64,000 bases of DNA from Patescibacteria group bacterium (GTDB lineage Bacteria; Patescibacteriota; Patescibacteriia; UBA10025; JBIOWE01), in NCBI GenBank assembly GCA_044868145.1, contig JBIOWE010000006.1, forward strand, positions 284,537 through 348,536, given 5' to 3'. Positions 25,757-47,753 of this stretch are shown piece by piece. Under the pieces are notes generated by a model. The model made no database searches. It was not told the DNA's origin and saw only the letters and a list, made by a program, of their open reading frames with translations. The stretch's first letter is position 1. Each line of letters starts with the position of its first letter. Both the position numbers and the translations under genes were made by a program.

Positions 25757-26773
25757 TTAATTCGCTCCAAGGTCCAAGGATTTCCTGCCCTTCATGTATG
25801 CAATCGTTTGGGTCAATCCATCCTCTAACGAAGTTACCGGAAGCCATCCGAGTCGTTCTTTCGCAAAAGCAAGGTCTGGGACTGGCTGACGTGAAAATTC
25901 TTGACGTGATTCCTCGTAGATAACCTCGGATCGTGACTCACACATCTTGATGATGAGTCGCGCAACATCTTCTATCGTATACTCTTTGACGCCGCCCATA
26001 TTGACTGGACCTGACTCACTCGTCCGTATAAATTTCATTACGCCATCCATGATATCGCTCACGTAGCAAAAAGTGATCTTCGTATTGGGCTTAGCGGTAA
26101 TGACAATGGATTTACCCATGAGTGCCCGATGGATAAATTCCGGAATCATCCGACCGTCATCTAGCTTCATCCCCGGACCATAGGCATTAAAAATACGAAC
26201 GATCTTCGCATCAAAATTGTGGAGCTTTCGATATTGAAACGTCAAGTTTTCCGCGAAACGCTTACCCTCGCCGTATACGCTCCTGTCCGCGAGTGGGTCA
26301 AGAAACCCCCAGTAAATTTCGGGGATCGGCTTGTCTTCAATCGGTTCACCGTAGATTGCCGCCGACGAAAACAGCATAAACTTCGCATTGTATTTTTCCG
26401 CAACGTCCAAAGCGTGCTTTGTTCCAAAGGCGTTTGCGAGAAGCGTTTCAATCGGATATCGCACATAGTCACGCGGAGAGGTCGGGCTTGCCAAATGATA
26501 GACCTCCTGAACGCCCTGGAAGGAAATTTTGAATACCTCAAGTTCATCAAAACGCTCGAGATCAATGGGTTTGGTCACGTCGTGGCGAATAAATTTGAAA
26601 TCAGGATACTGCAGCAAATGATTAATGTTCTCCAAGTTCCCGGTCAGGAAATTATCAACGCAAATGACTTTGGCGTCTTTCAAAAGTAATTCGCAAAGAT
26701 GAGATCCAAGAAACCCCGCCCCCCCGGTGATGAGAACATTCTTTTTTTCGAAAATTGGTCGTTGTGTAGCCAT
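25757..26773 (-). CDS. UDP-glucuronate decarboxylase (UDP-xylose synthase / ArnA decarboxylase-domain-like)
   Basis: VLITGGAGFLGSHLCELL. YGEGKRFAE catalytic motif. IVRIFNAYGPGM, characteristic of the UXS family. Confidence 0.7.
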   Translation of the reverse strand: MATQRPIFEKKNVLITGGAGFLGSHLCELLLKDAKVICVDNFLTGNLENINHLLQYPDFKFIRHDVTKPIDLERFDELEVFKISFQGVQEVYHLASPTSPRDYVRYPIETLLANAFGTKHALDVAEKYNAKFMLFSSAAIYGEPIEDKPIPEIYWGFLDPLADRSVYGEGKRFAENLTFQYRKLHNFDAKIVRIFNAYGPGMKLDDGRMIPEFIHRALMGKSIVITAKPNTKITFCYVSDIMDGVMKFIRTSESGPVNMGGVKEYTIEDVARLIIKMCESRSEVIYEESRQEFSRQPVPDLAFAKERLGWLPVTSLEDGLTQTIAYMKGRKSLDLGAN

Positions 26774-26775
26774 AG

Positions 26776-27480
26776 TTATACGTGACGAAAACGTAGCTGA
26801 AGGAGCGTGAAAAACATCCGAGCGCTTGTAAGAAGTAATTTCAGAGGTGATCCGAGCAGCGCTGAACTTGACTGATCAACCCAGATTGTTGGTGCTTCGC
26901 GGATGCGGAAGCCGCGCTTCCAGGCAAGATAGAGGAGTTCAACATCGAAAACCATGTTCGTAATGCGTAAATCCGGGAGAAGACGATCGATGACTGTGCG
27001 TCGAAACAGTTTTGCGCCGCATTGCGTATCGCGAAACGGCAGGCGAAAGAGTAAAAAAACGCAGATACGGAATAAACGGCTGACTATGGTCCGGACAAAG
27101 GATCGGTCTGAAACCTTCGCGCCGGCTACCCACCGGGAAGCTATAACGCCATCAAACGCATCAAGTGATTGGAGTAGTTTTTTTAATTCAGTAGCGCTCG
27201 TTGCGCCATCCGCGTCAACAAAACCGATAATGTCTCCACGTGACTCAGCAAACCCTCGACGCACCGCGGCGCCTTTGCCGGCTTTTTCCGGGATGTTGAT
27301 TAAACGAACAATGGGGTTGGCTCTTTCAACTGCTTGAACGATTTTAACCGTGTGATCAGTGCACCCGTTTGTGACCACAAGAATTTCGACATCGCGCTGG
27401 AAAACTGACAAAAAATCTTCAAGGGTTTTGCGAATACGTCGTTCCTCATTATATGCGGGAATCGTCAATGACAAGAGCAT
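26776..27480 (-). CDS. GT2 polyprenyl-phosphate glycosyltransferase (ArnC/Dpm1/GtrB-like)
   Basis: LTIPAYNE, DADG and ASRW motifs. Followed by a GtrA-family gene. Confidence 0.75.
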   Translation of the reverse strand: MLLSLTIPAYNEERRIRKTLEDFLSVFQRDVEILVVTNGCTDHTVKIVQAVERANPIVRLINIPEKAGKGAAVRRGFAESRGDIIGFVDADGATSATELKKLLQSLDAFDGVIASRWVAGAKVSDRSFVRTIVSRLFRICVFLLFRLPFRDTQCGAKLFRRTVIDRLLPDLRITNMVFDVELLYLAWKRGFRIREAPTIWVDQSSSALLGSPLKLLLTSARMFFTLLQLRFRHV

Positions 27481-27524: not shown

Positions 27525-27980
27525 CTATTCTCGCTCGGTCGGACGGAAGGTCCAGAACTTATTCCCAAAGAAGTTACTAAACAGAACGAGAGAGATTGCA
27601 ACCGCCTTGGCAAAAAAATCCTCTCCGCTCCCAAATAACCGCTCTGCGTGCGTGTACTCAACAACTGCATACGTTATGCCGACATTCAAAAAATAGTTTA
27701 CCGTGCTGACAAGTAAGAATTTGCCGTACTCAATACGGCCGCGACCGCTTTGCCCCTGCTGAAACGTCCAGTATTTATTGAGAAAGAAATTGTTCAGGAT
27801 TGCGAGGAAAACGCTTATTGCTGTCGCATCAATGTAGTACAGTCCTACGCCCCGCGTCAGCAATGTGTAGACTCCAAAATCGATAACTGTTCCGGTCAGG
27901 CCGACAACCGAAAATTTCGCAAACTCATAAAGCGAGGGGTGCCGCTGAAAGAATTGTATGTTGTCAATTCTTTTGAACAT
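27525..27980 (-). CDS. GtrA family membrane protein (lipid-linked sugar translocation-associated)
   Basis: 151 aa with 4 TM helices. FKFSVVGLTGTVIDFGVY and NKYWTF motifs. Confidence 0.7.
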   Translation of the reverse strand: MFKRIDNIQFFQRHPSLYEFAKFSVVGLTGTVIDFGVYTLLTRGVGLYYIDATAISVFLAILNNFFLNKYWTFQQGQSGRGRIEYGKFLLVSTVNYFLNVGITYAVVEYTHAERLFGSGEDFFAKAVAISLVLFSNFFGNKFWTFRPTERE

Positions 27981-27985
27981 ATAGA

Positions 27986-30121
27986 TTAACGGGCAACTAC
28001 TCCGACAAACACGCCGCCACGAAACGCCAAAGTGTAGGCGAAGAATTGTCCAAGGACCTTGCCGGTTAGGTTAAAAAGACGAACTTGTGGTCCGCCACCA
28101 TACCCCGCACCCGCAACAATATCGTCTGTACCATCATTATTCACATCCCCAGCGGCAACATGAACGCCACCGCGAAAGGTTGATGCATACGCGAAGAATT
28201 GCCCAAGGACCGTTCCCGACTTCGTGAATATGCGGACGTGCGGGCCTCCGTTGGAAAAAGGACCTGTGACGATTTCATCCACCCCGTCACCGTTCACATC
28301 ACCGGAAGCCACGGAGACGCCACCCCGAAAGGTCGCGGCGTAGGCAAGAAATGGCACATACTTCCGCGTGCCAAACCGGTCAAAAATGCGTACCTCGGGA
28401 ACTGTGCCAACGCCTGCGCCAGCGATAATTTCATCTACCCCATCACCATTAACATCGCCGGCAGCGACGAAAACGCCGCCACGCTGCGCCTGATCAAAGG
28501 CAAAGAATCCCGGGGTGAACTTCGGCTTGCCATAACGGTCAAACACGCGCACCTGGGGTCCGCCGCCGTTGCCCGGACCGGTGATTATTTCATCCATCCC
28601 GTCGCCATCAAGATCTCCGACTGCAACATGCACACCGTTGCGAAATGTCGAGGCGTAAGCGAAAAACCCCGGCGTGAAGACTGCCGATCCGTTGGTTCGG
28701 AACACACGTACCTGAGGGCCGCCGCCAGGCCCTACGCCGGTAATAAGTTCCGAGGTACCGTCGCCGTTTACGTCGCCAGACGCTACTTCAACGCCTCCCG
28801 GAAACGTGGTTGCGTACGCGAAAAATTCAGATGCTACATTTCCTGATGCGTTGAGGAGGCGAACGTGGGGGCTGCCACCCGGGCCTGCACCCGTTACAAT
28901 GAGGTCGGACAGCACAATCGCTTGCTCGCTGTTAATGCTTTTTGCCAGGTTCACGCGTCCAGCGCCCAACTGACCCGCGTACGATGGATTACCCGCATCC
29001 AAATCATCTGACCCCTGAAACAGAACATCAGACACTTCAGAAAAAAATAGAAGGGGGTTTTTCGCCATGATGAGTGACAGGGCGCCGGCAATAACAGGGC
29101 TTGCGACCGACGTTCCGTACCATCCAGACTGATAGTAATCCGTAAACCCCTGGCCAGGAGAATAAAAAACCGTGCTGGTCATGTTAATGCCAGGGGCTGA
29201 AATATCGATACAGGGTCCATAGTTAGAAAAGCTTGTTTTGTGATCCAGCTCATCCGTGGCCGCAACACCGATAACATTGTCATTACACACCGGATATTGG
29301 GGTGTCGTGGCAAGGTTCACATTGTTATTACCGGCGGCGGCAACGACCAGGGCACCATGCTGCGCGGCATTGGTGATCGCCTCTTGAAGTACCTGACTAT
29401 TCGTTGATCCCACGAGGCTGAGATTGATAATATCAGCGCCCTTTGCAACAGCGTAGTTCACTCCTTCAGCAATAGTCAGAGTATCCCCCAGCCCGCTCCC
29501 GTCAAGCACGCGAACGGACATAACCCTACTGGTCCATACAACACCGCTTATGCCTGCCGCATTATTGCCTACTGCCGCCGCTATGCCAGCGACGACAGTG
29601 CCGTGACTCATGCCCGTGTCAGTCCACGCACCATCAAATTTCGGATTTGGATCAGCACTCCCTTGCACAAAATCCCAGCCATGAACGTCATCAATAAACC
29701 CATTCAGGTCATCATCAATACCGTTGCCAGGTATTTCTCCTGTGTTCATCCAAATATTCCCGGCCAGGTCCGGATGGTCAAGATCAACGCCGGAGTCAAG
29801 AACCGCGATAACGACGTCTTGTGATCCCGTTGTAACGTCCCAGGCAGTTGGCGCTTGAAGGGGTGAAAAATACCATTGGCTTGCATACAGCGAATCATCA
29901 GGCACTGTGGCCATCGAAAAACTCGCCAACGGTTCACGGATGGTGGCTCCATCATGTTCCATGATAATGGTATTGCCGTCCATACGGTAACTCACCCGAT
30001 CAAGATGATGAGGGCGACGGGAGACGTTATAACCAACGCTTGCCTCAACTGGATAAAACAAAAAGCACAGTACAAAGCACAGCGCAGTTAACGATCGTAT
30101 GGATGAGCAGCGCGCTGCCAC
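27986..30121 (-). CDS. secreted subtilisin-like serine protease (peptidase S8) fused to a C-terminal FG-GAP repeat beta-propeller
   Basis: N-terminal signal peptide. S8 triad motifs VLDSGVD (Asp), HGTVVAGI (His), GTSVASPVIAG (Ser). The C-terminal ~310 aa hold six ~44-aa repeats (GDVNGDGxDEIxxGxGxGGGPQVRxF...FFAY), with a possible degenerate seventh. GTG start 1 nt after the upstream stop. Confidence 0.85.
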   Translation of the reverse strand: MAARCSSIRSLTALCFVLCFLFYPVEASVGYNVSRRPHHLDRVSYRMDGNTIIMEHDGATIREPLASFSMATVPDDSLYASQWYFSPLQAPTAWDVTTGSQDVVIAVLDSGVDLDHPDLAGNIWMNTGEIPGNGIDDDLNGFIDDVHGWDFVQGSADPNPKFDGAWTDTGMSHGTVVAGIAAAVGNNAAGISGVVWTSRVMSVRVLDGSGLGDTLTIAEGVNYAVAKGADIINLSLVGSTNSQVLQEAITNAAQHGALVVAAAGNNNVNLATTPQYPVCNDNVIGVAATDELDHKTSFSNYGPCIDISAPGINMTSTVFYSPGQGFTDYYQSGWYGTSVASPVIAGALSLIMAKNPLLFFSEVSDVLFQGSDDLDAGNPSYAGQLGAGRVNLAKSINSEQAIVLSDLIVTGAGPGGSPHVRLLNASGNVASEFFAYATTFPGGVEVASGDVNGDGTSELITGVGPGGGPQVRVFRTNGSAVFTPGFFAYASTFRNGVHVAVGDLDGDGMDEIITGPGNGGGPQVRVFDRYGKPKFTPGFFAFDQAQRGGVFVAAGDVNGDGVDEIIAGAGVGTVPEVRIFDRFGTRKYVPFLAYAATFRGGVSVASGDVNGDGVDEIVTGPFSNGGPHVRIFTKSGTVLGQFFAYASTFRGGVHVAAGDVNNDGTDDIVAGAGYGGGPQVRLFNLTGKVLGQFFAYTLAFRGGVFVGVVAR
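27990..28920 (-). repeat. about six tandem ~132-nt degenerate coding repeats (FG-GAP blades) inside the subtilase gene
   Basis: Periodic protein repeat. The plus-strand antisense ORF 28199..28846 is an artifact of this repeat. Confidence 0.6.
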
Positions 30122-30122
30122 C

Positions 30123-31349
30123 TTAGAGAATTTCTAATTCAATTTTGAGATCAAGTGCGATGCCATCTCGGAGAATAGACGCTGTCACGATCGTACCTGG
30201 CGCGAGCGCCTGGATAAGGTCGGGCAGCGAAACTTGCGTATCAAGCTTTGTACCGTTAATCGCCACAATAATGTCGTTTTCCTTGATGCCCGCTTTTTGC
30301 GCTGGACTGCCTTTCTGAACTGCCAAACGATCTGGTCTACTGCTGGCGACGAGCGCACCTTCTTTTCTACCCTGCGTAAGGTCCGAAGCAATATTCGGGT
30401 TTCTTGCAAGGTCAATATAGTTCACACCCAGGAACGCACGAGAAACTTCTTTTAACCCCAGCACCTGATCAAGGGCAACACGCATATAGCGGATGGGCAG
30501 AATAGTATCATTATCGAGAAAAATACCAAGGAGCTTACCATCTTGAGTTACTGCGCTGAGCCCGTCTAGTTGAGTCGTCGCTTGAGTACCAATGCGATAA
30601 TGCGTTGGCACCTGCTCAGAAGTGAACGTAAGATCTTCTACCGATTTTGTGTCACTATACAGCTTGTCTGCTACGAATGAGCTGAAAAAGGCTTGGTGCG
30701 GGCCAACCGCGAATTGAGGAAAGGCGTACACCTGGCTGCCGTTTTGGACAGCGTCGTCTGTAACGAACGAAAGTGCAATGGTTTTGTTGGTTGCAATATG
30801 AAAGAAACGAACCTTGGTGAGAGGGTCAACTTGAATATGATCCACAGAAAAAATGGAACCGTCCGATGCCATAGCCACATAATCAATAGAAATATCGTCT
30901 AGTACTTTTTCCGTCGTCGCGCAAACGCCGTCATTGGTGAGCGTAGCCGCAAACCCCAGCCGATCCGCGTCAAGATAAACAGGCGCAAACACGTTATCAG
31001 TACTTTGCTTCTTGCGAAATAATTGAATTGTTCCCCGTTGCATATTGCCTGCAAGCTCTTTGAGTTGGGCTGTCGTGTCCTTTGAACTCCCAAGACTCAA
31101 CGTCGTTTCGACATTACGCAGACTCAATCCAGGAATGTTCAGCTGCTCGCCGTACAGAAGAACAAGGGCGCACCCGATGACACCGGAAAGTAAGCCTATA
31201 AGCATGGCGAAGAAAAAAGCAGAGAACGACAGAGTAGAGCGTTTACGCTGAGGATGATTGAAATCCGAGGAATCAGTTAACAACGCACCGGGAATCTCTT
31301 TGTTACTCGGACGTTGTTTGGGCGAAGTTGGAGTTAACTTTGGCTTCAT
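30123..31349 (-). CDS. membrane-anchored PDZ-domain protein (no recognizable protease triad)
   Basis: Basic cytoplasmic N-terminus, one TM helix (FFFAMLIGLLSGVIGCALVLLYG), C-terminal PDZ-like segment (VQKGSPAQKAGIKENDIIVAINGTKL). No GNSGG motif. Its stop lies 1 nt before the subtilase start. Confidence 0.6.
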   Translation of the reverse strand: MKPKLTPTSPKQRPSNKEIPGALLTDSSDFNHPQRKRSTLSFSAFFFAMLIGLLSGVIGCALVLLYGEQLNIPGLSLRNVETTLSLGSSKDTTAQLKELAGNMQRGTIQLFRKKQSTDNVFAPVYLDADRLGFAATLTNDGVCATTEKVLDDISIDYVAMASDGSIFSVDHIQVDPLTKVRFFHIATNKTIALSFVTDDAVQNGSQVYAFPQFAVGPHQAFFSSFVADKLYSDTKSVEDLTFTSEQVPTHYRIGTQATTQLDGLSAVTQDGKLLGIFLDNDTILPIRYMRVALDQVLGLKEVSRAFLGVNYIDLARNPNIASDLTQGRKEGALVASSRPDRLAVQKGSPAQKAGIKENDIIVAINGTKLDTQVSLPDLIQALAPGTIVTASILRDGIALDLKIELEIL

Positions 31350-31352
31350 AGA

Positions 31353-32117
31353 TTATACCCAGCGCGCAGTAAGAAAAACAATCAAAATCATCATAACCGA
31401 AACCAGCAGGTAGCGCCGAAAACTCGCTGGCTGAAAATTCTTGCGTAATGCATCGCGTATGGTTAAAAGAGATACATAATATACGGCAGTCAGAATAAAC
31501 GCGTCAACGAAGAAAGATGTGGGCAAGTATGTTGCGACGTAAAAAATCTCCATCGTCAACAGCGATAATGACACAATCGCATGTCGTCCTTCTCGCCATG
31601 AAATCTTGCTCACCCAAAAGAACAAATACGTGCTCAATCCGGTAAAAACGAACGACGCGGGAAGAAACATAAGAACGCGAGTATTAAAATAGAGTAGCAC
31701 ACCGTAGATACTGCAATAATAAAAGAATGTTGCAGTAAGCAAACTATAGGTTGTAATGTTTTCAAGCGCATAGGGTTGGTACAAATCGTGTTCTCGGGAG
31801 AAAAAAAGCACATTGCGTAATATCAACAATACCATTAATGAAGTAAGGAAGCCGACGAACTGTTGTAACAAAGGATGTTCAATAAAAAAGAAAAAAGCAA
31901 ACCCTGAACTGGTGAGGAGAACTACAATGAGAAAAAAATGAAAAAAGTTTCTTGAGAGATAGTTCTTCCCGGTAATGTACCAAACAAGAAAAGCGAGAAG
32001 GAAAAGGACTGCCGGAGCAACAACAATGATAGACTTTGGAGCCAGAAGCGCGACCTCAAACGCAATAAGGACGCTAAAGGCAGCTGCATAAATAAATGTT
32101 CTCTGGACGATAAACAT
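31353..32117 (-). CDS. polytopic membrane protein (hypothetical)
   Basis: 254 aa with about 8 TM helices. 3-nt gap to the PDZ gene. Confidence 0.45.
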   Translation of the reverse strand: MFIVQRTFIYAAAFSVLIAFEVALLAPKSIIVVAPAVLFLLAFLVWYITGKNYLSRNFFHFFLIVVLLTSSGFAFFFFIEHPLLQQFVGFLTSLMVLLILRNVLFFSREHDLYQPYALENITTYSLLTATFFYYCSIYGVLLYFNTRVLMFLPASFVFTGLSTYLFFWVSKISWREGRHAIVSLSLLTMEIFYVATYLPTSFFVDAFILTAVYYVSLLTIRDALRKNFQPASFRRYLLVSVMMILIVFLTARWV

Positions 32118-32119
32118 AA

Positions 32120-32644
32120 TTAACGTTGTTGCGTCTTTTGGTTGCTCTTACGCTCTTCGCGGAGTTCGCGGATCAGTTCCTGCACGCGTTCGGGATATTT
32201 AATCCCTGAAAGCTCAATAGTTACCGTTGGCGCGCCAGTTTGTAACACGAGCGTTCCGTAATGAAACAGCGTGCCGAACATACCGCGGATCTGAATGGTC
32301 ATATCTTCAATTTTATCATATTCGATTTCCGAGACCGTTCTGCGAAAAAAACCCTGCTGATCAACGTCAACGATGCGCTCGTTGGTAATAACCAGTGCGT
32401 TCAGCGAATACAGCATAACGGCACGGACGATGAGCGCCACACCAAAGACTAACGCAATAAGAAAAATGACCATGCCAACCGTTCGCAACCGAATCAGCGG
32501 GTAGAAAAAAAAGAAAAGTGCTATAATAAACAATGCGCCGAATGCAAAAGGTCCAAGGAAGACCAGCGGGTCCTTACGAACAACGCGAATGACCCGTTCG
32601 TCCGGGCGCAGGGCAATATGCTTAAATAATGACTGGTCTAACAT
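32120..32644 (-). CDS. bacterial PH-domain (bPH_2/YdbS-like) membrane protein
   Basis: Two N-terminal TM helices, then a ~90-aa domain with the pattern typical of membrane-flanked PH domains. Confidence 0.5.
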   Translation of the reverse strand: MLDQSLFKHIALRPDERVIRVVRKDPLVFLGPFAFGALFIIALFFFFYPLIRLRTVGMVIFLIALVFGVALIVRAVMLYSLNALVITNERIVDVDQQGFFRRTVSEIEYDKIEDMTIQIRGMFGTLFHYGTLVLQTGAPTVTIELSGIKYPERVQELIRELREERKSNQKTQQR

Positions 32645-32748: not shown

Positions 32749-34593
32749 CTAGCCACGCTCCTTGAGCACTGCGAGGTACGCTTCCTGGGGAATCGTCACC
32801 TTCCCAAACAGGCGCATCCTTTTTTTGCCTTTCTTTTGCTTTTCCAACAATTTCTTTTTTCTCGTAACGTCTCCCCCATAGAGGGGCGCGGTAACGTCTT
32901 TTCGCATAGGCGAGATCCGGGCTGAGGCAATAATCTTGCCGCCAATGAGTGCCTGAATTTTTACTTCGAATTGTTGCCGAGGCAATATGTTTTTGAGCCG
33001 CTCACAAATTTTCCTGCCCGATCGCTGCGCGTTCTCTTCATATACGATGGTCGAAAGCTCTGGGACAAGTTCGTCGGCAACAAGAATGTCGAGTCGCACA
33101 ACTTGGGTAAGACGGTACTCAAAAAACTCGTAATGCAGTGATGCGTACCCTGATGTAACGCTCTTCATTGTATCATAAAAATCAACGATAATCGAGGCGA
33201 GCGGCAGCTCCGCACGAACGAGCAATCGGTCAGGATTTAAGTACTCAGTTGTTCGATAGATACCACGCCGTTCTTGAATAACATTGAGTATTTGTCCTAC
33301 AGACGTTGACGGCGAAATGATTTCGGCGTTTACCCATGGTTCTTCGATACGCTCGATCTGTGACGTTTCTGGCAACTCATGCGGATTAGAGATGAACAAT
33401 GCATCCGGCATTTTCTCTGGGGAAAGTTTTTTTCTTTTCTGAAGCGAGCGACGCCCTTGCTCGTTCAAAACGATTTTATAGGCGACGGACGGTACCGTGA
33501 GAATCACTGAAAGACCATACTCCCTGGTGAGTCGTTCTTGTACTATCTCGACGTGCAAAAGACCGAGGAAGCCACACCGAAAGCCGAAACCGAAGGCCTG
33601 CGATGAGTCGGGTTCATACACAAGGCTCGAGTCGTTGAGTTGCAGGCGCTCCATCGCCTGCCGTAGTTTCGGAAAATCATCACCTGACATACAATAGATG
33701 CCAGCAAATACCATTGGCTCAATCCGCTTATAGCCGGGAATCGGTCGGCTTGTGGGTTTGCCCGCATTCGTCATCGTATCGCCGACTCGCAAGTCCTGAA
33801 TATTTTTCAATCCGGTCACAACATATCCAATTGCCCCTGATCCCAATTCTTCTCGCGAAGAAAGTTTTGGTTTAAAGACGCCTACGTCAAGTACATCAGA
33901 TTCCTTCCCTGTTGCCATCATCTGAATCTTATCTCCCGCGGCTACCCGACCATTCATGACACGCGTGTACGCTATCACTCCTTTATAGTCATCAAACGCC
34001 GAATCAAATACGAGAGACTGCAAAGATGCGTCGTTATCCCCTCGCGGAGAAGGAACGCGTTTGATAACTTCTTGCAAAAGCGCTTCCACTCCTTGGCCTG
34101 TCTTTGCGGATACAAGCATTACGGATTCTTCTGCGACCTTAAGGAGCGTCGCGAGCTCCTGCCGAGTTTTTGCAACCTCGGCATTCTGTAAATCAATCTT
34201 GTTAATAACCGGAATGATTTGGAGATGCAACGACTGGGCAACATGCAGATGCGCAACAGTTTGTGCTTGAATACCCTGCGTGGCGTCCACGAGCAAAATT
34301 GCACCCTCACAGCAAGCAAGTGATCGCGATACTTCATAGCTAAAGTCCACGTGGCCAGGGGTATCGATAAGATTAAGCACATAACTCTGATACAACATTT
34401 GCACAGGCGCAAGCTTGATGGTAATGCCGCGCTCGCGCTCCAAATCCATTTGGTCGAGAAATTGGTCCTTCATCTCTCGCTTAGATACTGTGCCGGTAAG
34501 TTCAAGCAAACGGTCCGCGAGCGTTGACTTGCCGTGGTCGATATGGGCAATAATGCAAAAATTGCGAATCAATTGTTGCTCGTTATTTGCCAT
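32749..34593 (-). CDS. lepA: translation elongation factor 4 (LepA)
   Basis: IRNFCIIAHIDHGKSTLADRLL G-domain. DLERERGITIK. 614 aa. Full-length colinearity with LepA. Confidence 0.92.
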   Translation of the reverse strand: MANNEQQLIRNFCIIAHIDHGKSTLADRLLELTGTVSKREMKDQFLDQMDLERERGITIKLAPVQMLYQSYVLNLIDTPGHVDFSYEVSRSLACCEGAILLVDATQGIQAQTVAHLHVAQSLHLQIIPVINKIDLQNAEVAKTRQELATLLKVAEESVMLVSAKTGQGVEALLQEVIKRVPSPRGDNDASLQSLVFDSAFDDYKGVIAYTRVMNGRVAAGDKIQMMATGKESDVLDVGVFKPKLSSREELGSGAIGYVVTGLKNIQDLRVGDTMTNAGKPTSRPIPGYKRIEPMVFAGIYCMSGDDFPKLRQAMERLQLNDSSLVYEPDSSQAFGFGFRCGFLGLLHVEIVQERLTREYGLSVILTVPSVAYKIVLNEQGRRSLQKRKKLSPEKMPDALFISNPHELPETSQIERIEEPWVNAEIISPSTSVGQILNVIQERRGIYRTTEYLNPDRLLVRAELPLASIIVDFYDTMKSVTSGYASLHYEFFEYRLTQVVRLDILVADELVPELSTIVYEENAQRSGRKICERLKNILPRQQFEVKIQALIGGKIIASARISPMRKDVTAPLYGGDVTRKKKLLEKQKKGKKRMRLFGKVTIPQEAYLAVLKERG

Positions 34594-36187
34594 CAGCGTG
34601 ATTTCCGTTGATTATTTGCCGTCTTACCCTTACCAACCAATCAGTAATGATTTTGATTTCATCGCATCGTAGCAGCATGGCAAAAACAAGGTACGCGGTG
34701 ATGCCGACGACAGCAGCCACCGCTCCTTGGAGAAAGATACCAACAAACGTCTGCATATTCACTCCCTGCGCGATAACATATTTCGCCACCCAGATCACGC
34801 CCCCCATCGCGAGGGATGCGAGACTAATTTTCAGAACAGATTTGATAATTTTTGTGTCGTCCATATATCCAACTCGCTTGCGAAGAAATCCGAGTAACAG
34901 TAGCATTTGCAAGATGCTTGCAATGGAAAACGAAAGCGCAAGCCCGGTAACGGGATCCGACATAACTCGAGTTAAAATAAGCGCGCCAGTCAAATTAGCA
35001 ACAACCGAAACGCTTGCGATGAGCACCGGAGTTTTCGTGTCATGAAACGCGTAGAAGGACCTCGCGAGCAAAGGTATGACGCTTTGAGCGAACAACGACA
35101 CGGAAAAAAAGCCAAGCGTCTGGGCAGTAAGAAACGTATCTTCCCAATCGAAATTGCCGGTACCCAGAATAACGCGGACGATTTGGGCTCGCAATAAAAG
35201 GATGACCACGGAAAGCGGGATAATAAGAAACAGGATTCGACGAAAGCTCACGGAGAATTGCACGACAAACTTTTCAGTGTTCTTTTGAGCGAACGCTTCG
35301 GAAAAAATCGGAAACGAGGCTATGGCGAGCGAAACGCCGACAACGCTAATTGGAAAACTTCCCAAGTTATTCGCCAGGTTAAATACCGCGACACTGCCGA
35401 CAGCGAGCGTTGATCCGATTATTATGCTAACCATTTGTTCGATTTGACCTACCCCCAACCCAAAAGCGCGCGGAACCATCAAACGGCCAATCTTACGTAC
35501 GCCTGCGTGCGTGGAATCAAGAATGATCTTGTAACGAAACCCCAGCCGGCGAACCGCGGGTAGCTGAATCAGCACGTGTAAAATGGACCCCAACACAACA
35601 CCATAGGCGACCCCATATATTCCGTACTTTGGGGCCAACAACATAATACCGGCTATAATGCCGAGGTTATATAGAACAGGCGCAAAAGCAAAATTAACAT
35701 ATCGTTTGTACGAATTCAGCAGTCCGGTGAAAATATTTGAAATAGTAAAAAACAACACGGACAAAAGCATAATCCGCGTTAAATGGGCAGTGATCAATTG
35801 CTTGTCAGGAGAAAACCCTGGTGCAATAACTCCCGCGAGCTGCGGCGTGAACAGAAAAAAAATGCCGCCGAGCACAAGCACGCCGAGCAAGAGAATATTC
35901 AGCAATGAGTTGGCGATATGCCACGCTTCTTTGCCATTCTGTTCCCTATACTGTATGAAAACCGGAAGAAATGCCGATGACAAGGCCCCCAAAACGAGAA
36001 TGTTGACGATAAAATCTGGTATCTTGAACGCGGCGTAGTACATGTCGAGTTGGTCACCAGCACCAAATGTTGCAGCGAGTAAACGATCGCGCACAAGACC
36101 AAGCAACCGACTCACAATGGACGCTGTCGCTATAATAATTGCACCACCAGTTACGGTGGTGACGAGTTTCCGCCAAATTCTATTCCA
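34583..36187 (-). CDS. murJ: lipid II flippase MurJ (MviN)
   Basis: N-terminal SRLLGLVRDRLLAATFGAGDQLDMYYAAFKIPDF and 14-TM MOP topology. The start is set at the internal MWNRIW..; the ORF extension to 36370 is probably non-coding. The 3-prime end overlaps the lepA start by 11 nt. Confidence 0.8.
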   Translation of the reverse strand, partial: WNRIWRKLVTTVTGGAIIIATASIVSRLLGLVRDRLLAATFGAGDQLDMYYAAFKIPDFIVNILVLGALSSAFLPVFIQYREQNGKEAWHIANSLLNILLLGVLVLGGIFFLFTPQLAGVIAPGFSPDKQLITAHLTRIMLLSVLFFTISNIFTGLLNSYKRYVNFAFAPVLYNLGIIAGIMLLAPKYGIYGVAYGVVLGSILHVLIQLPAVRRLGFRYKIILDSTHAGVRKIGRLMVPRAFGLGVGQIEQMVSIIIGSTLAVGSVAVFNLANNLGSFPISVVGVSLAIASFPIFSEAFAQKNTEKFVVQFSVSFRRILFLIIPLSVVILLLRAQIVRVILGTGNFDWEDTFLTAQTLGFFSVSLFAQSVIPLLARSFYAFHDTKTPVLIASVSVVANLTGALILTRVMSDPVTGLALSFSIASILQMLLLLGFLRKRVGYMDDTKIIKSVLKISLASLAMGGVIWVAKYVIAQGVNMQTFVGIFLQGAVAAVVGITAYLVFAMLLRCDEIKIITDWLVRVRRQIINGNHADGK

Positions 36188-36614
36188 CATACGCCAGATT
36201 ATTCTAACATTTTTTTCGACTTTCCGCAAGTATGGAAGAATCATCGCGAGCTTTGGGTCTCGTGGGTTCCCAAAGCGAGCGATACAAAAGATTTTGCGAA
36301 AAGCGTCGAAAAATACTTTTTTAAAAAGGGTTTTTCGAAATAAAAAAGCTGTCAGGAAAAAACAACGCATTGACGCGAATTATTCGCATAGAATCCTGAA
36401 TGAATCAGGACGAGGAGAGAGGTTCGGTCCCCGAAGGGACATTCTATACTTATAGCTCGATCTCCGTCATTGCCATTCCTAACAGCTTTTTTGCGACAAG
36501 CTTGATGATTGAAAGGGAGCATTCCGTATCTTTGATAGACGAAACACGTTTATCGACCAAAGATACGGGGAAAGGAAGTATTATCTTTTCCTTTCCCTGA
36601 TGAATGCCCGGATA

Positions 36615-36944
36615 TCATTTTCCCATCCTGTGGTCCACCATGAATGGGAATCGATATGATTCGGCCAGTTCTTTGAGAGCCTTCAAATTCTCTGGGCAAG
36701 GCGTGGAGTTTTGCATTTGGCATACTACCACGGCATCGTCCCCATAAACCTTGAATGGCCCTGCTTCCGGCAGTTTTGGCGTGCATTCAATAAACTGTAG
36801 CAGTGCAATGAGCGAACGATATGAAGCTTCAGTAGGCGTTACTGATAATTGATCGACCGCCTTAGATTCAATACCAAGTTCAGGGATGCTGAAGGTAGCA
36901 AGAAAAACCTTCTTACGCTGCATCGCAGCAAAGTAGCATTTCAT
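36615..36944 (-). CDS. hypothetical protein (109 aa)
   Basis: Strong RBS AAGGAGGG 6 nt upstream of the ATG. No recognizable domain. Confidence 0.4.
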   Translation of the reverse strand: MKCYFAAMQRKKVFLATFSIPELGIESKAVDQLSVTPTEASYRSLIALLQFIECTPKLPEAGPFKVYGDDAVVVCQMQNSTPCPENLKALKELAESYRFPFMVDHRMGK

Positions 36945-37070
36945 TGTGACCCTCCTTTCGATGAAAGGAACTATTTACCTTAGATTCAATAGATGGTTAT
37001 AGAATCTCAGGAAAATGGGAGAGGCGTGTCATTGCATATCGCAACATCGCGCCTCTCCAAATCTGATAGC

Positions 37071-37340
37071 TTACTGCCAGTACGCTCCGTTTGTCTCATG
37101 GAGTGTTGGTGGCTTGCGCTCAACACGCAGTAATTGGTAAAAATGTTCAGGTACTTTCTCTCCTTGTTGCTCCAACGCGCGTACAATTCTCACGGCGTTA
37201 TGGTAATTTGCTTCGCTTTCTCGCAAACTTTCGCTCTCGGTGAACCGTTCGAGTTGTTCCAATAGCCTCCCTTTCGGAACCCCGCTTGCAGAAAGCTTTT
37301 TCTTGAATTTCTTGATGACTACTTCTACAAGGTTCTCCAT
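37071..37340 (-). CDS. hypothetical small helical protein (~89 aa)
   Basis: GGAGG RBS 4 nt before the ATG at 37340 (MENLVEV); the ORF could alternatively start at 37358. Hairpin terminator downstream. Conserved leader motif upstream. Confidence 0.4.
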   Translation of the reverse strand: MENLVEVVIKKFKKKLSASGVPKGRLLEQLERFTESESLRESEANYHNAVRIVRALEQQGEKVPEHFYQLLRVERKPPTLHETNGAYWQ

Positions 37341-37377
37341 AAAGCCTCCAATGTTCAATGTGCAAAGTTTCTCCCTC

Positions 37378-37419
37378 TTCTGAACCTGCCAGCTTGTGAC
37401 TACCAGGCTCGGAAGAGAA
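37378..37419 (-). promoter_or_regulatory. conserved 5-prime leader motif, copy 1 (upstream of the 37071..37340 gene)
   Basis: Shares about 80% identity over ~41 nt with copy 2 (37937..37984). The pairwise consensus on the plus strand is GAACC.G..AGCTT.TGAC.ACCAGGCTC..AAGAG. Confidence 0.5.
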
Positions 37420-37455
37420 GCGGGTTTTGGAACCTACCCGCTGGAGGTAAAAGAG

Positions 37456-37896
37456 CTACGGACTGTGGTATGCGGCAAACGGACTGTAGAAATGAACCTG
37501 TAATATCTCAATGTCTCCGGAATGGTATTTATTCATTCTCTTAAACGTGTCATTCAACCGATCAACAAAGTGTCGACGGGTCTCACTACCTTCTTTTAGG
37601 CCTTTAAACTCGTAAAGGCCGCAGAGGTCCTTAACAAAATCAAGTTCGATGTAAAGGTTTGACAATCGTGCACTTGAGGTATCCATCGCCGTTCGCAATC
37701 GGATTAACACCGGGACCTCTGCCCTGTCTTGGAATGTAACACGCATTGTGGCGAAGTATTGTGGTGAGTAGTCTTCAAACTGTACTGCTATTGTCGAACC
37801 TCGTGCAGGCAGCAAAATATAGAGCATTATTGACATCAGTCCTGACACCAATAATGTTGACATTAACATACCCAGCCAACCTGACCATTTTTTCAT
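37456..37896 (-). CDS. hypothetical membrane-anchored protein (146 aa)
   Basis: N-terminal TM helix. RBS GAGGAGG before the ATG. Conserved leader motif upstream. Confidence 0.45.
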   Translation of the reverse strand: MKKWSGWLGMLMSTLLVSGLMSIMLYILLPARGSTIAVQFEDYSPQYFATMRVTFQDRAEVPVLIRLRTAMDTSSARLSNLYIELDFVKDLCGLYEFKGLKEGSETRRHFVDRLNDTFKRMNKYHSGDIEILQVHFYSPFAAYHSP

Positions 37897-37936
37897 TGAT
37901 CCTCCTCGTTAAATTTAATGAACTTTTTTGATTCTT

Positions 37937-37984
37937 TTTTGAACCCGTTAGCTTATGACCACCAGGCTCAAAAGAGAGGAAGAG
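37937..37984 (-). promoter_or_regulatory. conserved 5-prime leader motif, copy 2 (upstream of the 37456..37896 gene)
   Basis: See copy 1. Located ~40-90 nt upstream of the start codon. Confidence 0.5.
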
Positions 37985-38080
37985 CGCAGAGTGACGTTTG
38001 AGCATACCCTGAAGGTATCCTCTCATCTGCAGATTTTTGCTATGGCTCTCCGCAATAGTCATAGCGCTCTTCCAAGAATG

Positions 38081-38143
38081 AATAAAAAAGAACAAGGCGG
38101 ATAGTTGGACGTATACTTCTCGCCCGCAAGGTGCCTTGTTCTT
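38081..38143 (-). terminator. putative intrinsic terminator after the 38167..38490 gene
   Basis: 11-bp stem AAGAACAAGGC/GCCTTGTTCTT around a long loop, followed by a T-run on the minus strand (and an A-run upstream). Confidence 0.45.
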
Positions 38144-38166
38144 TTTGATTGTAAAGTACAAACTAC

Positions 38167-38490
38167 CTAGCCTTGCGCTCGCGCCTTGAGCGGGTCTTGT
38201 GGGAAACCTCGAGCGAAGTTCTTGAGCTGAAAGGCAAACTGCTTCCGTCCGCGGTTATTCATCTGCTTAGGCTCTATAGGCAGGTATCGAAGAACCATCT
38301 TGTCCTCGCCGCTCAACTCCGTCACACTACAACCCATAAGCACTGATACAGCTACAGAAAACCCTTTGCGCAGATACAGCTCAGGGAAAACTCGCTTGCG
38401 GTACTCCCAGTCTGACTCGCCATCTTGCCTCGGAATACCAAGGCCCTCGAGGTTTCGCGTCAGGGCGTCTCCTTCATAGAAACTCGACAT
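38167..38490 (-). CDS. hypothetical protein (107 aa)
   Basis: RBS GGAGGTG before the ATG. Hairpin in the 5-prime UTR. Terminator downstream. Confidence 0.45.
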   Translation of the reverse strand: MSSFYEGDALTRNLEGLGIPRQDGESDWEYRKRVFPELYLRKGFSVAVSVLMGCSVTELSGEDKMVLRYLPIEPKQMNNRGRKQFAFQLKNFARGFPQDPLKARAQG

Positions 38491-38635
38491 TGTACACCTC
38501 CATTGATTTTCAAAGTCTCATATTATAAATCCGCTAGCATTTCTAACGAACTTGTAAATGAGGGGAACCGGAAGATATGTTGTGCATACTCCAGATTAAG
38601 GTTCCCCGATAGTATGTGATGAGTCAAATAGCTGA

Positions 38636-38833
38636 CTATTTTCCAAGATTGCTAAGAGCTATCGAAGCTAGAAAGAATGTGCAAGGAGCAATTAGCCAAT
38701 TAATTGACTCGGGCAGATTGGTTTGCCCCGTGAAGCCCCTGATTGCAGTGACCGATAGACAGCCGATCAGCAATATTATCCCAATAAACCAGAATCCCTT
38801 TGCTAAATCCTTCATCTCATCCTCCTTTGTCAA
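38636..38833 (-). CDS. hypothetical small two-TM membrane protein (59-65 aa)
   Basis: Two hydrophobic helices. A possible alternative start at the internal Met is preceded by AAGGAGG. Confidence 0.3.
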   Translation of the reverse strand: MTKEDEMKDLAKGFWFIGIILLIGCLSVTAIRGFTGQTNLPESINWLIAPCTFFLASIALSNLGK

Positions 38834-39544
38834 TGTATCCTTCCCTTCAGCCCATTATGTTGATAATAATGTGGCTCAAGGAAAGAGGGAAGGAGTGAAG
38901 GAGATTGTGCGGGTAGTACGTACATACGTTATGGTATGCGTACTGTTATAAACCGGCACGGCATCTACAGGGCCTTCCCCTCTTGAACTTGCTGATAAAG
39001 AACAGTTCGAGTAGTCAAGGACATTCGTCCTGGATAATTGCAATCTTTTTGCAAAAAGATTTTTTCATGCCCAATGGGCGCGTTCCTTTGGCAATGTTCC
39101 AAAGAAAGATCTGGAGGTGAGATGCTCGACCTAAGCCATACGGCCCTGCCGAGCGAAGAATGAATTGTAGTATACTCTTAGTTTACACCAAGAATAATTA
39201 CTTTTCATCCTTTTTATCTAACCCCTCCATATCCCACTTTGAAACAAAAAACGGATTGCTCGAGTAGAGAATCCGCCTTTTGTTAGCCGCCGGGATTTTC
39301 ATCGTCCGCGGCTCAACAATTGATTAATGCATTAAAGGCTTTTCAGCCTGCCCTTTTGTTCCTGTTCAGAGGCGCAAAAAGGCAAACCGTCTCTCTCGCT
39401 TTAAACCTTTTGATTGTTTTAAAAAACAAAATTAACAATACAGCATATACCTCTATGGTTTTCCTGTCAAGAGGGATATCCACATTGTATGGTTATTTTT
39501 GCGTTAAGCTAGCAAAAAAACATGTACATTTGAGTACAGGCACT

Positions 39545-39621
39545 TTGGGTAACCGCCAATCCTCAGATTGGCGGACCACGGTTTCCCACATTACGCCCGA
39601 TCTGAGGATCGGGTGTTACCC
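39545..39621. repeat. dual-hairpin structured element, copy A (outer stem GGGTAAC/GTTACCC; hairpin 1 CCGCCAAT-CCTCAG-ATTGGCGG; hairpin 2 CCCGATC-TGAG-GATCGGG)
   Basis: Read directly. A second copy at 51721..51787 has an identical hairpin 1, and compensatory substitutions in the outer stem and hairpin 2. Confidence 0.6.
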
Positions 39622-39630
39622 GCGAAAAAA

Positions 39631-41877
39631 CTACTGCCTTTCAATCAGTGCGGTGTATATTTGATCAGACGTGAGGTCAGCGGAAAACTTGAGCTGATTT
39701 TGAGAAGACTCCCCGCTTTGGCTCCACGCGAGCACGTATTGAGAGGGCAGTCGAAGGAACGAAACCAAGCCTGTCGGCGCAGAACCAGGCTGGCGTTGCA
39801 CGAGAAGAGAATAGGTATCAGTCGGGTGCGTCAAAAAACCCGTTCGTAAGCTAAACGGAAGTTTATAGGAAACTTCGACTGTTGCCTGCTGACCAGGACG
39901 CACAACAACCCAGTTGCCGAACACCGTTTTGCCAAATTCATGTGTTACGCGGGTTTGCGTTCGTTCATCGAGTGAAGGATTTTTCTCAATTGCCAAGAGA
40001 TCTTCGTCTTGCCCCGCATCAAGGTCAGGTTCTTTAAACCTGGATTGCGGAATGACGCTAAATCCTTGAGCGTCAATAAGCTCGCTGCCTTCGGGAACGT
40101 AGAATCGAACGTAGGAGACGTTATCAACGCCCGCAAAAGCATCATTCTTCGAACCGTTATGCACGCGTGTCAATTTAACTGTATCGATAATGGAGCCATC
40201 GTCAAGAACGCGAGCTTCATGGAGAATCAATTGTTGCATTGACGCGTCCGTTTTGCCGCCGCCAATGTTCGTCGTCACCACGGAAAGAAAATCTTTTTCA
40301 GCGGGCAGAATCGCCCCGGACCAACGAAGGTCCTCGATGCGCTGCTGCGTTTCTTGATTTTTGCTGAACAGCAGGAGGTCGCGCTGATCAAAGGAGGTGC
40401 TCAAAGCTCCTAACAAATCAACCAACTTATCAGGACTAACGGAGAAGAGCTTATTTAAAAGCACAGGCAGAAGATCAGCGATGAACGCTTTTGGCTCGCC
40501 ACTCTCTCGATGAGCGTCCGAATAGGATTGTGCGTACGCAACAAAATTTGATGCACTGATGACAGTGCCGTATGGGTCGCGCATATCAATGGACCCGGTT
40601 ACGTCAAGGAGGCGCTCAATAAATGTTGGTGTAAGCGCGATAACACCGTCAACGGACGGTCCGCCGCTTTTTTCGTAAAACCACATTACTTTTTTCGCGC
40701 TCGTAGGAAAATCCGGGAACCAATTCGCGTCTTGGATGTTCCAATACGGATTCACGAGGTGGAGCGGATTCGGGGACACAATCTTTTCAGGAAATTGGCC
40801 GGCGATGTCATAACTTCCGCCGCGTGGCACCTCAATCCTCTCTACTGCGCCCTGGTAAACGTCAATGAGCGCGAGGGAGCCGATAAACCCGCCCGTAGGC
40901 CGAAGCTCACGATTATTTTCAAAAAGCACCAAGTAACGTTGCTGCGTATGTGCGCCAAGCACCGAAAGAAGGGCCTGGGAAGCCTTTTCCAAATAACTGA
41001 AATTGTCCCGAAGGGCTGGCAGTACGCCGGCAAGCGTCTGGAACGTTTCGCGACTAGACTCCGGAATATCTTCAGGGCGAACCAGTGAAAGGTTATCGAT
41101 CGTCACGCGCACGTAATGTTCCAGCAGAGGCAAACGTTCGGTCAAAACCGAAAAGTCCCGTGTTACGGTTTCGTCGGAACCCGGGACGCGCGTATCAATG
41201 GCTTGCAACAAGCTCGCCAATTCCTCCCCTGCTTTACTCATATACTCTCCGGCGGTCAACAAATGCTCTGCGCTACGCGATTCGCTGGAAGCCGCCTTTA
41301 CGATATCAGTTGTGAGCCCGCCGAAGCTGCGGAATTCTTCTTGGGCTGCGACGAAGCCGTTCTTCGCCTGCTCAAAGGTTGATGAGGCTTTATCGTACTG
41401 CTGGGAGGCAATATACTGGGAGGCATCAATGAATTGACCGTATGCATCCGTGCTGGCGCCGAGTACCTTACCTTTCACTTCTTTGGCTTTTTGAATTGCC
41501 GAAACGACAAAAAACGGCACAAGCAATGCGCATAAGAGCAAAACAAACACCAGAAGATGTTTGAACCGGGGCGTAGACAACTTCCATGAAATGTCAGAAT
41601 GATTTTCTTTTCGTTTTTGACCTCCGCGCGGCCGCCGGTGCACAGGCGCGTCTTCTGCCGGCACGGTAAGGTGATGAATGGCTTTCCCCACTGTTTGCGT
41701 GCCCGCGCTAAAAAAGTTTTCCAACGCTGACTGGCGCACTGTCTGCTTCGGCTGCGAAGATTTGTCAGTCATTTTGCGAAGATTCAAAACATTTTCCTCG
41801 GGGACGCCAATCCCGGCGCGCGGCTTTTGAATACGCACGCTCCGTGAACCGTTTGTTTTGTGATTAGTCCGATTCAT
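39631..41877 (-). CDS. DUF4012-domain extracytoplasmic protein, membrane-anchored (cell-envelope polysaccharide locus protein)
   Basis: N-terminal basic region plus one TM helix. Core motif QRYLVLFENNRELRPTGGFIGSLALIDV, characteristic of DUF4012. 748 aa. Confidence 0.6.
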   Translation of the reverse strand: MNRTNHKTNGSRSVRIQKPRAGIGVPEENVLNLRKMTDKSSQPKQTVRQSALENFFSAGTQTVGKAIHHLTVPAEDAPVHRRPRGGQKRKENHSDISWKLSTPRFKHLLVFVLLLCALLVPFFVVSAIQKAKEVKGKVLGASTDAYGQFIDASQYIASQQYDKASSTFEQAKNGFVAAQEEFRSFGGLTTDIVKAASSESRSAEHLLTAGEYMSKAGEELASLLQAIDTRVPGSDETVTRDFSVLTERLPLLEHYVRVTIDNLSLVRPEDIPESSRETFQTLAGVLPALRDNFSYLEKASQALLSVLGAHTQQRYLVLFENNRELRPTGGFIGSLALIDVYQGAVERIEVPRGGSYDIAGQFPEKIVSPNPLHLVNPYWNIQDANWFPDFPTSAKKVMWFYEKSGGPSVDGVIALTPTFIERLLDVTGSIDMRDPYGTVISASNFVAYAQSYSDAHRESGEPKAFIADLLPVLLNKLFSVSPDKLVDLLGALSTSFDQRDLLLFSKNQETQQRIEDLRWSGAILPAEKDFLSVVTTNIGGGKTDASMQQLILHEARVLDDGSIIDTVKLTRVHNGSKNDAFAGVDNVSYVRFYVPEGSELIDAQGFSVIPQSRFKEPDLDAGQDEDLLAIEKNPSLDERTQTRVTHEFGKTVFGNWVVVRPGQQATVEVSYKLPFSLRTGFLTHPTDTYSLLVQRQPGSAPTGLVSFLRLPSQYVLAWSQSGESSQNQLKFSADLTSDQIYTALIERQ

Positions 41878-47293: not shown

Positions 47294-47344
47294 AATACTG
47301 CTTACCCCTTTGTATGTGTAAAGGGGGTGCTGGAAAAACGTTAA

Positions 47345-47753
47345 TGCCAAGGTAAGCCTGTAAGCCGAATTCTGTTCTCCTACTTGCAAGCAAGCGGAAG
47401 AGATAATTATCTCTCTGGGACCGCCATTGCTGGCGGCCTCTAGCGCCCGTTCGGGCTTGCACCGGAGAGGGTTTTCCACGCTCCTATCTCGCGATAGGTG
47501 CGCGTGAGCTCTTACCTCACGATTTCGCCATTGCCTGATCCCACCTCGTCGGCGGGCCATTGGCTGTGTATTTTCTGTTGCACTTTCCCTGGGCTTCAAT
47601 GCTTTACAGTTCTCGAGAGATCCGCAAAGCACCTACTCCCGGTCGCCGTTAGCGACTCTCCACTTCTCGCCTCGTCGGCGAGGGTGTTCGGACTTTCCTC
47701 CCCACCTTCCCCTTGCGGAAAAAGGCGAAGCAATTATCCAACTTACCTTGGCA
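47345..47753 (-). ncRNA. rnpB: RNase P RNA, bacterial type A
   Basis: The minus-strand sequence contains GGGGAGGAAAGUCCGAACACC (P4 5-prime strand), AGUGCAACAGAAAA, GGGAUCAGGCAAUGGCGAAAUCGUGAGGUAAGAGCUCACGCGCACC and ACAGAAUUCGGCUUA (P4 3-prime strand). P1 forms by pairing of CCAAGGUAAG with CUUACCUUGG. About 408 nt. Confidence 0.85.

Follow-up and report, generated by a model that had tools for sequence, protein, structure and literature searches.

The window analysed here is a stretch of 64,000 nucleotides (nt) from a genome of the Patescibacteria, also known as the Candidate Phyla Radiation (CPR) (contig JBIOWE010000006.1, positions 284,537 to 348,536). The subject is a pair of adjoining genes, one encoding a 408-amino-acid (aa) "PDZ protein" (30123-31349) and one, directly downstream, encoding a 711-aa S8 subtilase with a C-terminal FG-GAP propeller (27986-30121), referred to below as the S8-propeller protein. 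Genes in this region are closely packed and all lie on the minus strand, to which the feature coordinates refer. Sequence comparison and structural modelling indicate that the PDZ protein has a complete HtrA/DegP fold and is catalytically dead, and it is called dead HtrA from here on. Its constant partners are a DUF5656-type membrane protein and GT2/GtrA glycan genes; the S8 gene, together with a gene for a bacterial PH-domain (bPH) membrane protein, accompanies it only in the window's lineage. The new part is a dead-HtrA family with a conserved tail and a fixed DUF5656/GT2 (usually GtrA) context, and nothing known is overturned.

Members of the CPR are tiny and, according to the literature, mostly episymbiotic; very little is known about the biology of their cell surface. 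The more useful outcome of the analysis is the recognition of a large, fast-evolving family, labelled only "PDZ domain-containing protein", as dead HtrA homologues with an invariant motif in the predicted cytoplasmic tail. The context in which dead HtrA, DUF5656 and GT2 (usually with GtrA) recur offers a testable entry point into CPR envelope assembly. For the S8-propeller protein, the work fixes the architecture, consisting of a signal peptide, an active site and a six-bladed propeller with predicted Ca2+-type loops, and corrects the public start codon.

Dead HtrA had been described in an earlier note on this DNA as a single-pass membrane protein with a C-terminal PDZ domain and no protease triad. 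The transmembrane (TM) helix, the PDZ domain and the missing triad all hold; the protein is not a mere PDZ anchor, however, as it includes a full degenerate HtrA domain. Pfam detects the PDZ domain (PDZ_2, 9.2e-12; PDZ_6, 1e-10) and gives no Trypsin_2 match for the window protein. The AlphaFold2 model (predicted local distance difference test, pLDDT, 87.4) consists of a disordered tail, a TM helix at residues 42-67, a trypsin-like barrel and the PDZ domain, and Foldseek comparison of this model with the PDB retrieves MucD, DegP, DegQ, DegS and M. tuberculosis HtrA at E values of about 1e-20 over about 325 columns, with target TM-scores of up to 0.80. With the DegP/HtrA models of NCBIfam, the aligned part begins at the end of the protease domain and runs on through the PDZ domain, and the scores are far under the cut-offs; the DegP model TIGR02037, for example, reaches 70.2 bits against a cut-off of 416.2, with only model positions 215-328 covered. 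A profile of the dead-HtrA family matches proteins named "serine protease Do" at 1e-30 to 1e-52. Among known systems the closest are HtrA, DegP and DegS (S1C), especially the single-PDZ DegS, which shares the N-terminal membrane anchor, the trypsin-like double barrel and the one C-terminal PDZ domain. Unlike these enzymes, the dead-HtrA family is without the His, Asp and Ser of the triad and has a conserved PTSPK tail, predicted to be cytoplasmic.

The degenerate trypsin-like (S1C) domain occupies 30456..31082. Alignment with active HtrAs places K148, K179 and D262 at the positions of His, Asp and Ser, and replaces the GNSGG motif by QLDGL. None of 136 family representatives keeps the triad, and many differing residues occupy the three positions. 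The PDZ domain that follows (30126..30455), identified by Pfam and by conservation, carries the carboxylate-binding loop R304-x-x-L307-G308-V. Across 53 sequences G308, G331 and D359 are invariant, while R304, L307, S348, P349, A350 and I361 are at least 90% conserved. At the other end of the protein stands the motif MKPKLTPTSPK (31317..31349), whose residues P7, T8, S9 and P10 never vary among 53 aligned family members of about 25% overall identity (family form MKxKxxPTSPK); K11 is conserved in at least 90% of them. Because the triad is lost in all 136 representatives while the PDZ loop and the N-terminal motif are conserved, the sequences point to a retained non-catalytic function and not to a decaying gene. 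Dead HtrA thus bears the marks of a pseudoenzyme that has been retained to bind or to scaffold, and the motif is a possible binding or phosphorylation site.

The motif lies ahead of a single TM helix at residues 41-67 (31149..31229), which Kyte-Doolittle analysis places at residues 38-68. Given the Lys/Arg-rich N-terminal tail, the positive-inside rule predicts that the N-terminus is inside and the ectodomain outside. Between MKxKxxPTSPK, which stands also at the N-termini of homologues P0155-P0224, and the helix comes a semi-conserved "LY..L..IE(K/R)P" stretch. A string with the same pentapeptide, "A(S/C)PTSP(R/K)", occurs in the epimerase/dehydratase encoded at 25757-26773 just downstream of the GT2 gene, and in its orthologues at loci L086, L088, L091, L092 and L102. 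As a link to the dead-HtrA tail this was rejected as coincidence, since in this SDR-family enzyme the string lies about 100 residues into the protein and not in an N-terminal tail.

An exhaustive phmmer search with dead HtrA returned 915 cluster representatives at E <= 1e-10, and the top 150 are mostly full-length proteins of 400-430 aa with 25-32% identity. Word-indexed searches, run with the PDZ protein and with the family profile, found almost no true members because the family diverges too fast for this method. The database name of one member reads only "PDZ domain-containing protein [Candidatus Kerfeldbacteria]". The nearest precedent is MamO of magnetotactic bacteria, an HtrA-family pseudoprotease that binds transition metals and activates the active protease MamE (PMC4794232). 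MamO resembles dead HtrA in its degenerate active site, retained for non-catalytic roles; it differs in coming from an unrelated lineage, in lying in magnetosome islands and in having an HtrA partner protease, whereas the putative partner of dead HtrA is an S8 protease. The family would be a second, independent example of a bacterial HtrA pseudoprotease, after MamO.

Gene order around dead HtrA was compared in relatives, and the total number of gene contexts sampled for it is 18. Starting from the S8-propeller protein, the order bPH, DUF5656, dead HtrA, S8-propeller, GtrA recurs in all six of the closest orthologue loci (48-56% identity). These six share MurJ (where the contig reaches), LepA, bPH, a 254-aa membrane protein, a PDZ protein with a weak Trypsin_2 match, S8-FG-GAP, GtrA, GT2, an epimerase and UDP-glucose dehydrogenase. 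All seven top-ranked S8 matches with known context (P0003, P0005, P0006, P0009, P0010, P0011 and P0014) lie in this cassette; the seventh, P0003, is the S8 protein of metagenome cassette locus L094 and has an identical N-terminus. The slightly more distant homologue P0024 sits in a different gene context.

A second, metagenome scan was anchored on dead HtrA through the N-terminal motif of a 16-sequence subset, and it yielded ten loci, one of them duplicating an earlier locus. S8 lies directly downstream in all nine loci with downstream DNA, DUF5656 is present in all that have upstream DNA, and bPH in all that reach further upstream. The multi-TM and bPH genes that the earlier note had placed tentatively in the same unit therefore do travel with the pair in relatives. 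Three divergent dead-HtrA proteins (P0164, P0175 and P0186, the last from a genome labelled Kerfeldbacteria) lie in the order DUF5656, dead HtrA, (GtrA), GT2, epimerase, with their genes at 6001-7233 of L103, 6001-7230 of L104 and 6001-7209 of L105. At L104 and L105, dead HtrA directly precedes GtrA and overlaps its start. Overall, the GT2 position is kept in all cassette loci with enough downstream DNA, and GtrA follows S8 in the orthologous loci.

The DUF5656 assignment of the window's 254-aa protein (31353..32117) comes through its orthologues. The protein itself has about seven to eight hydrophobic segments, lies 3 nt from dead HtrA and gives no Pfam match, including none to DUF5656 (PF18900). 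The 254-aa membrane protein is DUF5656 in two of the six S8-anchored loci, and the orthologues in L088 (2.6e-08, 34 bits) and L092 (2.2e-07, 30.9 bits) match PF18900 above its cut-off of 23.3. A hidden Markov model (HMM) of the orthologues gives 353 bits on the window protein, a partly circular score, as this protein is among the four build sequences. The same model matches every cassette locus with upstream DNA, including the S8-less L103-L105 (1e-31 to 1e-43). The closest active HtrA (P0122, L002) is preceded by a 260-aa protein, which was considered as a DUF5656 relative and rejected, as neither BLASTP nor HMM comparison found similarity.

Dead HtrA and DUF5656 are the fastest-evolving genes of the block, with 24-29% and 29-33% identity across loci, compared with 48-56% for S8, 57-64% for LepA and 58-66% for MurJ; gene order is held nonetheless. 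The block had been pictured as wedged into a glycan locus. An insertion does not fit the comparison, since the arrangement from MurJ to UDP-glucose dehydrogenase is conserved in relatives.

Both open reading frames (ORFs) of the pair lie on the minus strand where the earlier note had placed them, and the junction between them, which reads ...CTC TAA G GTG GCA..., confirms a spacing of exactly 1 nt from the dead-HtrA stop to the GTG start of the S8 gene. This GTG, at 30121, is the only ATG, GTG or TTG start that yields a signal-peptide-like N-terminus (MAARCSSIRSLTALCFVLCFLFYPVEA, followed by S at the predicted cleavage point). The public gene calls P0001 (665 aa, NCBI) and P0002 (658 aa, Logan) use internal ATG starts and so omit the signal peptide. 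Each of the 14 orthologous loci has a signal-peptide-bearing S8 start no further than 23 nt from the upstream stop (-23 to +23), which makes the GTG a better choice than the public starts.

The predicted Sec-type signal peptide spans residues 1-27 (30041..30121), with a hydrophobic segment at residues 5-31 and a cleavage site, VEA/S, read by eye; homologues have N-terminal signal peptides that line up with it. Behind it lies a shortened, poorly conserved prodomain remnant (residues 28-70, 29912..30040). Relative to homologues, which have a weak Fervidolysin_NPro-like prodomain, it carries a deletion of about 25 residues, and residues 23-69 are disordered in the AlphaFold2 model (pLDDT below 50, against 87.7 for the S8-propeller protein as modelled). 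The catalytic domain is thermitase/deseasin-like (28922..29911), matches Pfam Peptidase_S8 (PF00082) at 1.2e-49 and 169.6 bits (cut-off 21.8) over residues 101-377, and adopts the subtilisin alpha/beta fold in the predicted structure. The triad reported for this protein is indeed intact: D109, H173 and S338 are invariant in a 24-sequence alignment, as are the oxyanion residue N265 and the Cys pair C279/C304. These features suggest that the window's S8 subtilase is secreted and catalytically competent.

The C-terminal part (residues 404-711, 27989..28912) is predicted to form a six-bladed FG-GAP beta-propeller. It matches Pfam FG-GAP (PF01839) in five stretches at 1.9e-21 and 75.9 bits (cut-off 22.1), and FG-GAP_3 (PF13517) at 5e-18 and 65.9 bits (cut-off 26.9). 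AlphaFold2 places 24 strands between residues 407 and 709, equal to six four-stranded blades, and the C-terminal strand 704-709 appears to close the ring by completing the first blade. The closest structural matches of the propeller are six-bladed YWTD, NHL and Kelch propellers. The repeat array proposed earlier is thus real and models as a closed beta-propeller, so a beta-helix is not borne out; the period is 51-53 aa, however, and not 44, and there is no seventh blade. Five full DxNxDGxDE repeats and one blade split between the ends of the domain make up the ring, and predicted Ca2+-type loops, D-x-N-x-D-G-x-(D/S)-(E/D), occur in five blades, at residues 450, 503, 556, 608 and 659. The GC content of the 28-30 kb interval is raised (0.54), which probably reflects the Gly-rich repeats. 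Among relatives, orthologues P0011 and P0014 are short of one repeat (alignment columns about 700-760), and the S8-propeller gene at L102 3194-4954 encodes only about 587 aa. Members of the family seem to differ in blade number (5-6), something uncommon among closed propellers.

The S8-propeller fusion is already in the databases, abundant and ordinary. More than 6,700 relatives score at E <= 1e-10 among 8,000 candidates, the best 120 matches have identical Pfam architecture, and the named ones are almost all from Patescibacteria and labelled "S8 family serine peptidase". The window protein belongs to this family, and hundreds of listed homologues of the same Pfam architecture align with it over more than 90% of its length at 43-56% identity; structurally nothing sets it apart, and only its context differs, as dead HtrA upstream is limited to the closest orthologues. 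To our knowledge, the fusion is among the commonest secreted proteases of CPR bacteria and has never been characterised. Literature searches returned nothing on CPR S8-FG-GAP proteins and nothing on DUF5656.

Several known systems resemble the fusion in part. Thermitase/deseasin-type subtilases (MEROPS S8A) carry PPC, PKD or beta-jelly-roll C-terminal domains, whereas the window protein has a six-bladed FG-GAP propeller and a shortened prodomain. With integrin alpha and bacterial FG-GAP (VCBS-type) propellers it shares the FG-GAP repeats and the DxDxDGxxD-type Ca2+ loops, and phmmer with the window propeller retrieves integrin alpha-V blades and the Vibrio hemolysin-related protein 6mlt. Integrin alpha has seven blades, the window propeller six. 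A mycosin identity (MycP, TIGR03921, of the type VII secretion system) was rejected, given a score of 156 bits against a cut-off of 278.75, the lack of a C-terminal hydrophobic segment or TM anchor, and a neighbourhood in which no ESX genes were seen. Loci from other lineages comprise L008 (5857-10004), L009, L010 and L011 (3860-5856). Among them, an Uhrbacteria locus has two S8-propeller paralogues in tandem, and a Falkowbacteria locus has an S8 gene without a propeller and a GtrA homologue directly after it. In L008-L010 the S8-propeller gene has GT2 genes no more than about 3 kb away, and S8 genes seem to lie near glycan genes in several CPR lineages.

The preferred reading, held tentatively and at slightly less than an even chance, is a conserved cell-envelope operon segment in which dead HtrA acts as a membrane-anchored, non-catalytic platform serving exported proteins, including S8 or its substrates. 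The host lineage is Kerfeldbacteria-like Patescibacteria. The constant pair would be polytopic DUF5656 and bitopic dead HtrA, placed immediately ahead of the genes for nucleotide-sugar enzymes and a polyprenyl-phosphate-sugar module (GtrA/GT2); in the window's lineage the unit also includes bPH in front and the S8-propeller gene between dead HtrA and GtrA. The genes of the cassette would be co-transcribed, with dead HtrA and S8 made in coupled amounts, and S8 would be exported by Sec and lose its signal peptide. The protease-like domain and PDZ domain of dead HtrA would face outside, leaving the short PTSPK tail in the cytoplasm. Dead HtrA would cleave nothing and serve as a peptide-binding platform, whether holdase/chaperone, docking site or regulator, with its PDZ groove and protease-like shell engaging exported envelope proteins, here including S8 or its substrates. 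The propeller may be the ligand-binding surface of the protease, for a glycan or protein on the cell's own envelope or on a partner cell.

DegP has a protease-independent chaperone activity. By analogy with this activity, with MamO/MamE and with 3wqb, a crystal structure of a subtilase bound to a chaperone that is a protein of its own, dead HtrA could plausibly serve the protease or its substrates as holdase, dock or regulator. The shortened, disordered prodomain of the window's S8 would fit assistance by an external folding factor. Tethering, maturation of surface proteins and host interaction, the roles suggested in the earlier note, are hypothetical.

Several observations weigh against this reading. 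The S8 and bPH genes are absent at all three divergent dead-HtrA loci (L103-L105). Dead HtrA is absent in turn from all six of the more distant S8-propeller loci with upstream DNA among the matches listed, which include genome loci of Falkowbacteria, Uhrbacteria, Kerfeldbacteria and others that lack it in their flanks. This negative sample is small (L006-L014): the genome-contig scan, run on the S8 alignment, picked up generic subtilase motifs, and its at least 80 loci hold about eight full-length S8-propeller relatives among the matches listed. Conserved synteny of the pair thus stands for the closest relatives (six of six S8-anchored loci and nine of nine informative PDZ-anchored loci, with a tight or overlapping junction) and fails beyond them. 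Because both S8-less dead-HtrA loci and distant S8 loci without dead HtrA exist, the pairing is lineage-specific and does not define a two-gene module. Collinearity in relatives extends over the whole block of about 12 genes, and the dead-HtrA/S8 pair therefore does not stand out by conserved order alone. Cassette orthologues of S8 keep a longer prodomain, which means that dependence on a chaperone is not general. Promoter and terminator scans performed no better than on shuffled sequence. The S8 C-terminus was rejected as a likely PDZ ligand, since its residues 704-709 are modelled as the final propeller strand and are unlikely to be free. Physical contact between dead HtrA and S8, together with topology, secretion, co-expression and substrate, is inferred.

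The most serious alternative, distinctly possible although it probably does not hold, is that the two genes are neighbours only. The S8-propeller protein, like its thousands of paralogues in Patescibacteria, would then be secreted freely and serve nutrition or contact with a partner cell, its gene merely lying in a lineage-conserved envelope operon, and dead HtrA would work with DUF5656 and GtrA/GT2, with no specific tie to the protease. The S8-propeller family is huge and mostly without an adjoining dead HtrA, dead HtrA is also found beside DUF5656, GtrA and GT2 where S8 is absent, collinearity covers the whole block and not the pair alone, and S8 genes lie near GT2 or GtrA in other lineages (L008-L011). 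On the other hand, the stop/start junction is tight in 15 of 15 loci despite dead-HtrA divergence to about 25% identity. The S8 proteins of the cassette are also the top-scoring matches, with every top-ranked one of known context inside it, and S8 and bPH are jointly present or jointly absent across the loci sampled.

Less probable, and on balance unlikely, is a signalling device, in which dead HtrA would be a TM sensor or an anti-sigma-like substrate, perhaps clipped by S8 as site-1 protease, and the PTSPK tail would signal to a cytoplasmic partner such as the bPH protein or a kinase. Regulated proteolysis of the DegS/RseA type is an established paradigm. The predicted bitopic protein adjoins both a predicted active secreted protease and a PH-domain membrane protein, and its cytoplasmic motif is extremely conserved against a fast-evolving background. 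That motif is only about 11 residues long, however; the cassette contains no sigma factor, transcription factor or site-2 protease gene, and S8-less lineages keep the motif, so S8 is not a required component.

A bolder version of the platform idea, which looks improbable, makes dead HtrA and DUF5656 an undescribed CPR device for extracytoplasmic quality control or signalling, tied to GtrA/GT2 glycosylation. The PDZ domain would read exported or glycosylated envelope proteins, the PTSPK tail would report to the cytoplasm, and S8 would be the effector or processing enzyme in the window's lineage. It is very hard to credit that the upstream protein is still an active protease through non-canonical residues, giving two working proteases at the locus: the overall HtrA fold and PDZ domain are preserved and some orthologues give weak Trypsin_2 matches, but the residues at the triad are unrelated across the representatives, no alternative nucleophile, base or acid is conserved there, and the GNSGG oxyanion motif is gone.

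The remaining genes of the block follow in close order. MurJ (34583-36370) overlaps LepA (32749-34593) by 11 nt, and LepA is separated by a 104-nt gap from bPH, the first gene of the tight cassette. The bPH gene (32120..32644) encodes a 174-aa membrane protein with a hydrophobic N-terminal stretch at residues 25-87, read as two TM helices, followed by the bacterial PH domain (Pfam bPH_2, 7.7e-08); a 2-nt gap leads to the DUF5656 gene. On the other side of the pair, 5 nt after the S8 gene, lies the gene for a 151-aa GtrA-family membrane protein (27525..27980; Pfam GtrA_DPMS_TM, 9.7e-28). After a further 44 nt comes the first downstream glycan gene, for a 234-aa GT2 glycosyltransferase (26776..27480; Pfam Glycos_transf_2, 1e-26), followed by two epimerase/dehydratase genes, UDP-glucose dehydrogenase and further glycosyltransferases. 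By analogy, the GT2 enzyme may be a GtrB/DPM1-like polyprenyl-phosphate sugar synthase. The GtrA-family and GT2 (maybe GtrB-like) genes directly downstream, conserved with the cassette, recall GtrA/GtrB/GtrC modules, with the difference that no recognisable GtrC/GT-C transferase was found.

Further upstream in the window, the 3.2 kb between MurJ and a DUF4012 gene (36371-39630) hold only short ORFs of 60-160 aa. Public annotation lists six small genes there (66-123 aa), none with a Pfam match, and the interval gives no Rfam match at gathering thresholds and no tRNA. The DUF4012 gene itself (39631-41877, minus strand) encodes a 748-aa protein. Another DUF4012 gene, at L089 1385-3415, lies near a non-cassette S8-propeller gene, beside MreB, GT4 and type-IV-pilus-like genes. 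The window also encodes a bacterial class A RNase P RNA (47345-47749, minus strand; 205 bits, E 4.9e-65). An ORF listed mechanically at 45902-47632 runs into this RNA gene with its 5' end, so that its GTG start is probably over-extended.

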